A stretch of DNA of 64,000 bases, from the NCBI RefSeq assembly GCF_003334785.1, contig NZ_QOWV01000002.1; one strand, written 5' to 3'. Below the pieces are notes generated by a model, which was given only the letters and a program-made list of their open reading frames with translations, made no database searches and was not told where the DNA came from. Shown here in pieces: positions 61,004 through 61,216 of this stretch (position 1 is its first letter; each line of letters starts with the position of its first letter). The stretch comes from Escherichia coli. Its GTDB lineage: Bacteria > Pseudomonadota > Gammaproteobacteria > Enterobacterales > Enterobacteriaceae. Position numbers and translations under genes: made by a program.

Positions 61004-61022
61004 ATTGCATAAAGGATGCCAT
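61004..61022 (-). promoter_or_regulatory. sigma54 (RpoN) -24/-12 promoter of the hyf operon
   Basis: Minus-strand TGGCATCCTTTATGCA, matching TGGCAC-N5-TTGCA with correct GG-to-GC spacing, about 41 nt upstream of the hyfA start codon. Confidence 0.75.
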
Positions 61023-61114
61023 TCTGATTAACTCAATATATTCAATAAGTTATGTATTAACTGGATTCTGAACGGTACAAAAATGATGGTCATTAACGTT
61101 CAGCAAAAAATGGA

Positions 61115-61133
61115 TTCGACACCCGTGTCGCAG
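61115..61133. promoter_or_regulatory. perfect palindrome CGACAC-cc-GTGTCG about 100 nt upstream of the hyf sigma54 promoter (candidate enhancer-binding-protein UAS)
   Basis: 6-bp inverted repeat with a 2-nt spacer at the distance typical for bEBP upstream activating sequences. Confidence 0.4.
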
Positions 61134-61144
61134 GGGAAAGCGAG

Positions 61145-61165
61145 AATGTGATCTTGATCACGAGA
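61145..61165. promoter_or_regulatory. CRP-like palindrome TGTGA-tcttga-TCACG upstream of hyf
   Basis: Matches 9 of 10 positions of TGTGA-N6-TCACA. Confidence 0.4.
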
Positions 61166-61216
61166 AGTGAGGTATGCTGGCCGCAAGCGCAGCCAGCACG
61201 GAATGGAGCAAAGTAA

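Follow-up and report, generated by a model that had tools for sequence, protein, structure and literature searches.

The bcp-hyfA spacer and the hyfA promoter

The DNA analysed here is a 64-kb stretch of an Escherichia coli chromosome (64,000 nt, hereafter the window). On the minus strand of 60700-61600, the end of bcp (its stop codon ends at 61217) is followed by a 252-nt spacer and then by hyfA. The 401 nt from 60900 to 61300, which hold the bcp-hyfA intergenic region, are 100% identical to E. coli K-12 MG1655, and the same 401 nt match thousands of E. coli chromosomes in which bcp and hyfA are annotated as the flanks. The dependence of hyf on sigma-54, FhlA/HyfR, and CRP is on record in the literature. 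As the earlier note had it, the gene for HyfR is located at the distal end of the operon itself; we find hyfR at 48253-50268 on the minus strand.

For the comparison with other bacteria, HyfA was used as the query over one genome per species, yielding 45 loci. Among these, bcp is the upstream neighbour solely in Citrobacter and Kosakonia. Six Citrobacter and Kosakonia bcp-hyfA spacers were aligned with that of E. coli and invariant positions were counted over four lineages; as background, 9% of the intergenic positions outside the named elements are invariant in this alignment. The features are listed below with their window coordinates, their distance from the transcription start (negative numbers lie upstream), and the invariance over the four lineages where it was counted.

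48253-50268, minus strand: hyfR, coding for the operon's own sigma-54 activator (671-aa ORF)
60962-60975, minus strand: Shine-Dalgarno sequence AAGGAG and hyfA ATG, the ATG at 60964 (+31 relative to a start at 60994)
60994-60995, minus strand: predicted transcription start site, from promoter geometry and the prediction in the ChIP-seq paper
61006-61021, minus strand: sigma-54 -24/-12 element TGGCATCCTTTATGCA, a unique exact match, GG at 61019-61020 and GC at 61007-61008 (-27 to -12 relative to a start at 60994; 10/16 invariant)
61040-61052, minus strand: IHF-like core TAACTTATTGAAT (complement of WATCAANNNNTTR), -58 to -46, between enhancer and promoter (7/13 invariant)
61077-61092, minus strand: conserved block TGACCATCATTTTTGT / TGACCATCAYTTTTGT, -98 to -83, half-way from the IHF site to the activator box (15/16 invariant, the intergenic maximum)
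61117-61130: activator box CGACA-CGGG-TGTCG (CGACACccGTGTCG; CGACACCCGTGTCG), centred at about -129.5 (10/14 invariant)
61147-61162: CRP-cAMP site TGTGATCTTGATCACG, centred at about -160.5 (half-sites 8/10 invariant, spacer 1/6)
61175-61198, minus strand: bcp terminator hairpin with 10-bp arms, 90% complementary, delimiting the hyf control region on its upstream side

The SNPs of two divergent E. coli strains all fall outside the named elements.

The -24/-12 element reads TGGCAT-CCTTT-ATGCA and departs from the consensus TGGCAC-N5-TTGCW at two positions, both outside the GG and GC dinucleotides, with the spacing correct. Its 3′ end is 41 nt before the annotated hyfA ATG (60964), in agreement with the figure of about 41 nt in the earlier note. 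The hyfA start annotated in RefSeq genomes maps to this ATG, and the block formed by the Shine-Dalgarno sequence and the ATG is kept in relatives. An in-frame ATG at 61003 was rejected as the hyfA start, since it is located upstream of the transcription start, is not conserved in frame, and differs from the annotation. Expression of hyf is reportedly sigma-54-dependent, and the start found by primer extension is said to lie 30 bp upstream of hyfA. Promoter geometry places +1 at 60995, 12 nt past the C of the GC dinucleotide, and a conserved AAYGTTT block begins at the predicted start, 60994/60995. A search of 60900-61300 for a sigma-70-like promoter found none.

Genome-wide data place sigma-54 at this element. 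In MG1655, sigma-54 ChIP-seq yielded a peak (OS23) with the motif ATGGCATCCTTTATGCA, hyfA as the downstream gene, and a predicted start 31 nt before hyfA; this promoter is flagged as "experimentally confirmed" in EcoCyc. Moreover, genomic SELEX with RpoN holoenzyme put a peak of 92% on the bcp-hyfA spacer, and this peak became the highest of the genome once NtrC was added. On a matrix of 186 RpoN promoters (from PMC7658346), the element reaches 12.1 of 21.1 bits and is tenth in the window, behind nine positions in coding regions. The earlier description of it as an excellent sigma-54 match is therefore overstated and the match is only moderate, but the position, spacing, and identity of the promoter hold on the basis of ChIP-seq, SELEX, and conservation. 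With respect to the latter, about 30 of the 45 loci have a -24/-12 element of 12-18 bits that precedes the hyfA ATG by 54-100 nt, the carriers being Citrobacter, Kosakonia, Atlantibacter, Sodalis, Morganella, Providencia, Dickeya, Pectobacterium, Photobacterium, and some beta-proteobacteria.

The activator box and the most conserved block

HyfR is 51% identical to FhlA over 573 residues, and the recognition helix in the C-terminal helix-turn-helix is near-identical in the two proteins. Both should therefore read CGWCA/TGWCG pentamers. Activation of hyf by FhlA and, strongly, by plasmid-borne HyfR has reportedly been observed, and purified HyfR is said to shift the hyf promoter region in gels; we know of no HyfR or FhlA footprint on the hyf promoter. 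The inner palindrome at 61117-61130 has the strict form CGWCA-N4-TGWCG, which occurs twice in the window against about 0.24 expected. The second occurrence, at 12769, is inside a 1653-aa ORF and probably due to chance. We assign the inner palindrome as an FhlA/HyfR-type activator box, and a member of this pair is presumably the protein that contacts it.

Conservation of this box extends well beyond E. coli. Of 31 loci, 28 have a CGWCA-N4-TGNCG sequence on the upstream side of the hyf sigma-54 promoter, and the density of the box in hyf upstream regions is 11-fold that of the remaining sequence of the loci. The distance from the start of the box to TGGCA is 107-109 nt in Escherichia, Citrobacter, and Kosakonia and likewise in Atlantibacter, which has a different upstream gene; it is 100 nt for Sodalis and Dickeya, 64-77 nt for Morganella and Providencia, and 132-140 nt for Photobacterium and beta-proteobacteria. 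The palindrome is perfect in E. coli alone; in the relatives, the right arm reads TGCCG and the centre T-W-A, and compensating changes are absent. The earlier proposal of a perfect palindrome as a candidate upstream activating sequence for a bacterial enhancer-binding protein thus keeps its coordinates and gains a shared box type and a fixed offset, but the perfection is a peculiarity of E. coli. The E. coli box has GGG at its centre instead of the T-W-A found elsewhere, a point that we count against the model presented below. The published 13-site FhlA matrix gives the E. coli box only 4.7 bits (rank 602 in the window), likewise a point against the model; the C at position 1 and the GGG spacer lower the score, and orthologous boxes with a TAA spacer should fit this matrix better.

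The element with the highest conservation is the 16-bp block at 61077-61092, and this most conserved element has no place in the main model, which also counts against that model. The block is retained in a metagenome lineage (L069) and does not vary among divergent E. coli. When metagenomes were scanned for exact matches to it, 120 stretches were returned, of which seven are hyf promoters (six E. coli-like and one from a new lineage) and 113 are unrelated chance matches; a second gene context for the block was not found among these 120. By-eye comparison with the consensus sequences for IHF, Fur, ArcA, NarL, NtrC, ModE, TyrR, and Fis gave no conserved match. The block was also considered as a sigma-70 promoter and rejected, as a -35-like TTGACC is present in some species but is not followed by a conserved -10. 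A look-alike in Serratia (L029) lies in a 5′ UTR downstream of a sigma-54 promoter and is probably coincidental. Apart from this, the one sequence resembling the block is TGACATCGTTTTT, adjacent to the hydN FhlA box.

These features raise the question of whether the TGACCATCAYTTTTGT block, and not the CGACAC palindrome, is the main HyfR-specific enhancer, in which case the palindrome would be just a weak FhlA-type box. Such an arrangement would account for the scant activation of hyf by wild-type FhlA and its activation by over-produced HyfR. The 15/16 invariance of the block speaks for this reading, as does its confinement to the clade in which bcp adjoins hyf, a clade that, we infer, carries both hyc/FhlA and hyf/HyfR; it is missing from other hyf promoters, and in the metagenome scan it is seen in hyf contexts alone. 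In addition, the block starts with a TGAC half-site and resembles the sequence beside the hydN box. However, with a recognition helix nearly the same in HyfR and FhlA, a very different operator is unexpected, and the block is without a second half-site at the spacing of the box. We regard this reading as unlikely and retain the palindrome as the activator box; the block may serve as a second contact for an activator.

The CRP site and the bcp terminator

The outer palindrome, TGTGATCTTGATCACG, fits the TGTGA-N6-TCACA core at 9/10 positions. CRP-cAMP is reportedly needed for optimal hyf expression, as measured with hyf-lacZ. The remaining 106 CRP ChIP-seq sites of PMC4287617 were used to construct a CRP matrix, and on this matrix TGTGATCTTGATCACG scores 18.9 bits, which is the best match of the 64-kb window and above 97% of the 106 sites. 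In the same study, CRP ChIP-seq in ETEC H10407 gave a high-confidence hyfA peak with the site CGTGATCAAGATCACA, which is the TGTGATCTTGATCACG palindrome read on the hyf strand. CRP SELEX also lists hyfA among the recovered known cAMP-CRP targets. What the earlier note had described as a CRP-like site and a candidate for catabolite control is supported by the top matrix match and by CRP ChIP-seq on the identical sequence.

In Citrobacter and Kosakonia, the half-sites are conserved and the spacer is free to vary. The distance from the centre of the CRP site to the centre of the activator box is always 31 bp in Escherichia, Citrobacter, and Kosakonia, and the intervening sequence is not conserved. 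The site is conserved solely in the bcp-hyf clade and is absent from other hyf promoters, which retain the activator box.

FNR, or else FhlA/HyfR, could conceivably be the main protein bound at TGTGATCTTGATCACG in place of CRP. Among intergenic sequences, TGTGATCTTGATCACG matches the FhlA matrix best (10.2 bits), but the ranking of TGTGATCTTGATCACG above the activator box on this matrix was set aside as an artefact of register and spacer after comparison with the fdhF, hydN, and hyc-hyp enhancers. With respect to FNR, the left half-site in Kosakonia is TTTGA, which is FNR-like, and an FNR study counts hyfA as a promoter for which an FNR site is predicted and FNR regulation had earlier been indicated; the same study found no FNR ChIP signal at hyfA (a "silent" site). 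Moreover, CRP ChIP-seq puts CRP on exactly TGTGATCTTGATCACG, and the half-sites in E. coli and Citrobacter hold GTGA/TCAC, the bases that discriminate CRP. A site read by FhlA or HyfR is also difficult to reconcile with its absence outside the bcp-hyf clade, where the activator box is kept. Collectively, these data make binding chiefly by FNR or FhlA/HyfR improbable, and we assign TGTGATCTTGATCACG to CRP.

Upstream of the CRP site, the RNA of the bcp hairpin at 61175-61198 has a predicted folding energy of -20.9 kcal/mol (z = -4.1). At the orthologous position in Citrobacter there is a canonical terminator of -30 kcal/mol followed by UUUUU. In about 1,100 complete E. coli genomes without hyf, bcp abuts yfgO, and the homology between hyf-less and hyf-bearing strains stops at about 61168. 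This point lies just past the bcp terminator, with the CRP site another 5 nt further on, and the CRP site is therefore part of the hyf module.

This hairpin also bears on whether the inner palindrome, CGACACGGGTGTCG, could be the intrinsic terminator of bcp and not a protein-binding site. A simple terminator scan does flag a 5-bp stem and a 4-nt loop at the palindrome, followed by AATCCATTTT, and the true bcp hairpin is without a U tract in E. coli. The palindrome RNA, however, folds at -5.1 kcal/mol (z = +0.58), a value equalled or bettered by 146 of 200 shuffled sequences, and the minimum-energy structure does not use the palindrome. In addition, the strong hairpin at 61175-61198 is already in place 3′ of bcp, the TGCCG right arm of the relatives breaks the stem without compensation, the T run is not conserved, and the same box is found upstream of hyf where the neighbour is not bcp. 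We consider a terminator at this position highly improbable and keep the palindrome as an activator box.

That all of the motifs are functionless chance matches has a negligible likelihood and is counted as already refuted: matches to the sigma-54 consensus are indeed at the expected level in the window (47 with at most two mismatches against 45.4 expected) and one-mismatch CRP cores number four against two expected, but the conservation across genera is position-specific and occupancy has been published.

A model for hyf control and its relation to the formate regulon

Between the enhancer and the promoter lies the IHF-like core, which agrees with the consensus at 8/9 positions and, in most genera, is found on the same strand 30-31 nt before TGGCA. 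An IHF score of at least 8/9 was obtained in 24 of 36 promoters, compared with 12.6% of shuffled sequences. A role for IHF at 61040-61052 is suggested by these sequence comparisons.

In the model that we propose, sigma-54 RNA polymerase would occupy the -24/-12 element (61006-61021) as a closed complex unable to start alone. An ATPase activator of the FhlA family, HyfR or, more weakly, FhlA, would bind CGACA-N4-TGTCG at about -130, and IHF would bend the DNA at about -52 such that the bound activator contacts the polymerase. ATP hydrolysis would then open the promoter, with transcription starting at 60994/60995, 30-31 nt before the hyfA ATG. CRP-cAMP bound to TGTGA-N6-TCACG at -160.5 would add catabolite control from the same helix face as the activator box and 31 bp, or three helical turns, further upstream. 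Occupancy by sigma-54 and by CRP comes from the literature; the conservation of the elements and their spacing are observed here; the manner in which CRP helps we infer. To our knowledge, there is no established activation mechanism for CRP at -160 of a sigma-54 promoter, which is counted against the model.

We judge the three motifs (the sigma-54 promoter, the activator box, and the CRP site) to be real on the grounds of their conservation across genera, to which the published binding data add. It is very probable that the E. coli hyfABCDEFGHIJR-focB operon has its cis-regulatory region at 61004-61216, organised around sigma-54, a HyfR/FhlA box, IHF, and CRP as outlined above. The earlier note had these three motifs at the right coordinates but overlooked the IHF-like site and the most conserved block.

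A control region with a sigma-54 promoter, an activator box, and a CRP site is already known for hyf. The sequence is that of the E. coli hyfA promoter (hyfAp; Skibinski et al. 2002, Self et al. 2004, EcoCyc), with identical DNA and no difference. In terms of discovery, little is therefore added, as the hyfA sigma-54 promoter, the FhlA/HyfR dependence, and the CRP control are textbook-level for E. coli. The gain is of three kinds. First, each palindrome is assigned by test, the outer one to CRP and the inner one to an FhlA/HyfR box rather than a terminator. Second, the activator box and the IHF site are placed at constant offsets in many genera. Third, a strongly conserved 16-bp block is brought to light.

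The known promoters of the formate regulon provide a frame for these assignments. At hycA-hypA, which also has sigma-54 promoters of this regulon, the enhancer is made up of the same CGACA/TGTCG/TGTCA pentamers as the hyf box; there, however, the pentamers are direct repeats at other spacings, without a CGWCA-N4-TGWCG box. In contrast to hyfA, hyc/hyp has no CRP ChIP-seq peak in the ETEC table. IHF reportedly assists looping at hyc-hyp, as is proposed above for hyf.

The FhlA enhancers of E. coli fdhF and hydN carry the box itself. Their boxes, CGTCAAAACTGACG at fdhF and CGTCACTAGTGTCG at hydN, have the same pentamers and the same 4-nt spacing as the box at hyf and start 85 and 75 nt before TGGCA, respectively. 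The hyf box is located farther upstream (109 nt before TGGCA), its spacer is G-rich, and it is without the outer flanking pentamers that are present at hydN and fdhF. Unlike these two enhancers, hyf is said to respond mainly to HyfR and not to wild-type FhlA.

In this context, the conserved block could bear on the poor expression of hydrogenase-4 in E. coli, a puzzle of long standing. Tentatively, and with the chances somewhat against it, we suggest that the block may be an undescribed operator, either a second contact preferred by HyfR or a site for another factor, that might help to explain the near-silent state of E. coli hyf. Separately, and with the same reserve, the order in which a CRP site precedes an FhlA-type box by 31-33 bp, common to hyf and fdhF, may constitute a co-activation module at sigma-54 promoters. 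At fdhF, the CRP site identified by ChIP-seq is 33 bp upstream of the box; at hyf, the distance is 31 bp, and the two elements follow in the same order.

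Conserved and repeated sequence in the bcp-hyfA spacer

Between the FhlA/HyfR-type box (CGWCA-N4-TGWCG; 61117-61130) and the hyfA start codon (ATG at 60964), the spacer of the hyf (hydrogenase-4) operon carries the following features:

61077-61092, minus strand: 16-bp block TGACCATCAYTTTTGT, with 15 of its 16 positions invariant across four lineages
61040-61052, minus strand: IHF-like core TAACTTATTGAAT, conserved in strand and offset
61068-61077 and 61094-61103: inverted repeat CTGAACGTTA/TACCGTTCAG, flanking the conserved 16-bp block
60983-60990 and 60998-61005: inverted repeat ATATGAAA-N7-TTTCATAT, straddling the transcription start (60994/60995)

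In the four-lineage comparison, the 16-bp block shows the highest conservation within the spacer, and its exact matches outside the window, found by scanning metagenomes, are other hyf promoters or chance occurrences only. The IHF-like core is positioned 30 to 31 nt from the -24 element (sigma-54 -24/-12 element, 61006-61021) on an unchanged strand in many genera. The repeat at the transcription start is accompanied by a direct repeat of ATGCAAT; both inverted repeats are absent from Citrobacter and Kosakonia.

The hyf operon is missing from approximately 1,100 of the 5,426 complete E. coli genomes, and in these bcp directly adjoins yfgO (comparison locus L049). Homology with the genomes lacking hyf stops at about 61163-61168, just past the bcp terminator hairpin (61175-61198) and roughly 5 nt short of the CRP site (61147-61162).

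Other sigma-54 consensus matches, a second strict box and an upstream ATG

Three further stretches match the sigma-54 consensus with one to two mismatches; they share the coding strand of hyf and lie within hyfR or upstream of that gene:

48428-48443, minus strand: sigma-54 consensus match
49826-49841, minus strand: sigma-54 consensus match
50984-50999, minus strand: sigma-54 consensus match

With the 186-promoter RpoN matrix, all three score higher than the hyfA promoter. In the sigma-54 ChIP-seq paper, hyfA is the one hyf gene that the main text mentions. Apart from the copy at 61117-61130, the window holds a single strict CGWCA-N4-TGWCG box, CGTCAATATTGTCG at 12769-12782, which lies within a 1653-aa ORF and is probably a chance match. 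The mechanical ORF list gives hyfA 13 extra codons by taking an in-frame ATG at 61001-61003 (minus strand); this ATG is located inside the promoter and upstream of the transcription start, and was therefore rejected as the hyfA start.

Comparison with FhlA and fdhF

The alignment of HyfR (48253-50268, minus strand) with FhlA starts at approximately residue 105 (FhlA residue 137) and shows 51% identity, and the C-terminal helix-turn-helix is nearly identical in the two activators. Upstream of E. coli fdhF (comparison locus L053), the CRP ChIP-seq site CGTGATGGCTGTCACG is situated 33 bp upstream of the box CGTCAAAACTGACG; the CRP palindrome also resembles the mdtP terminator stem. The order in the fdhF region (positions 256-303), CRP site followed by box, is the same as at hyf.
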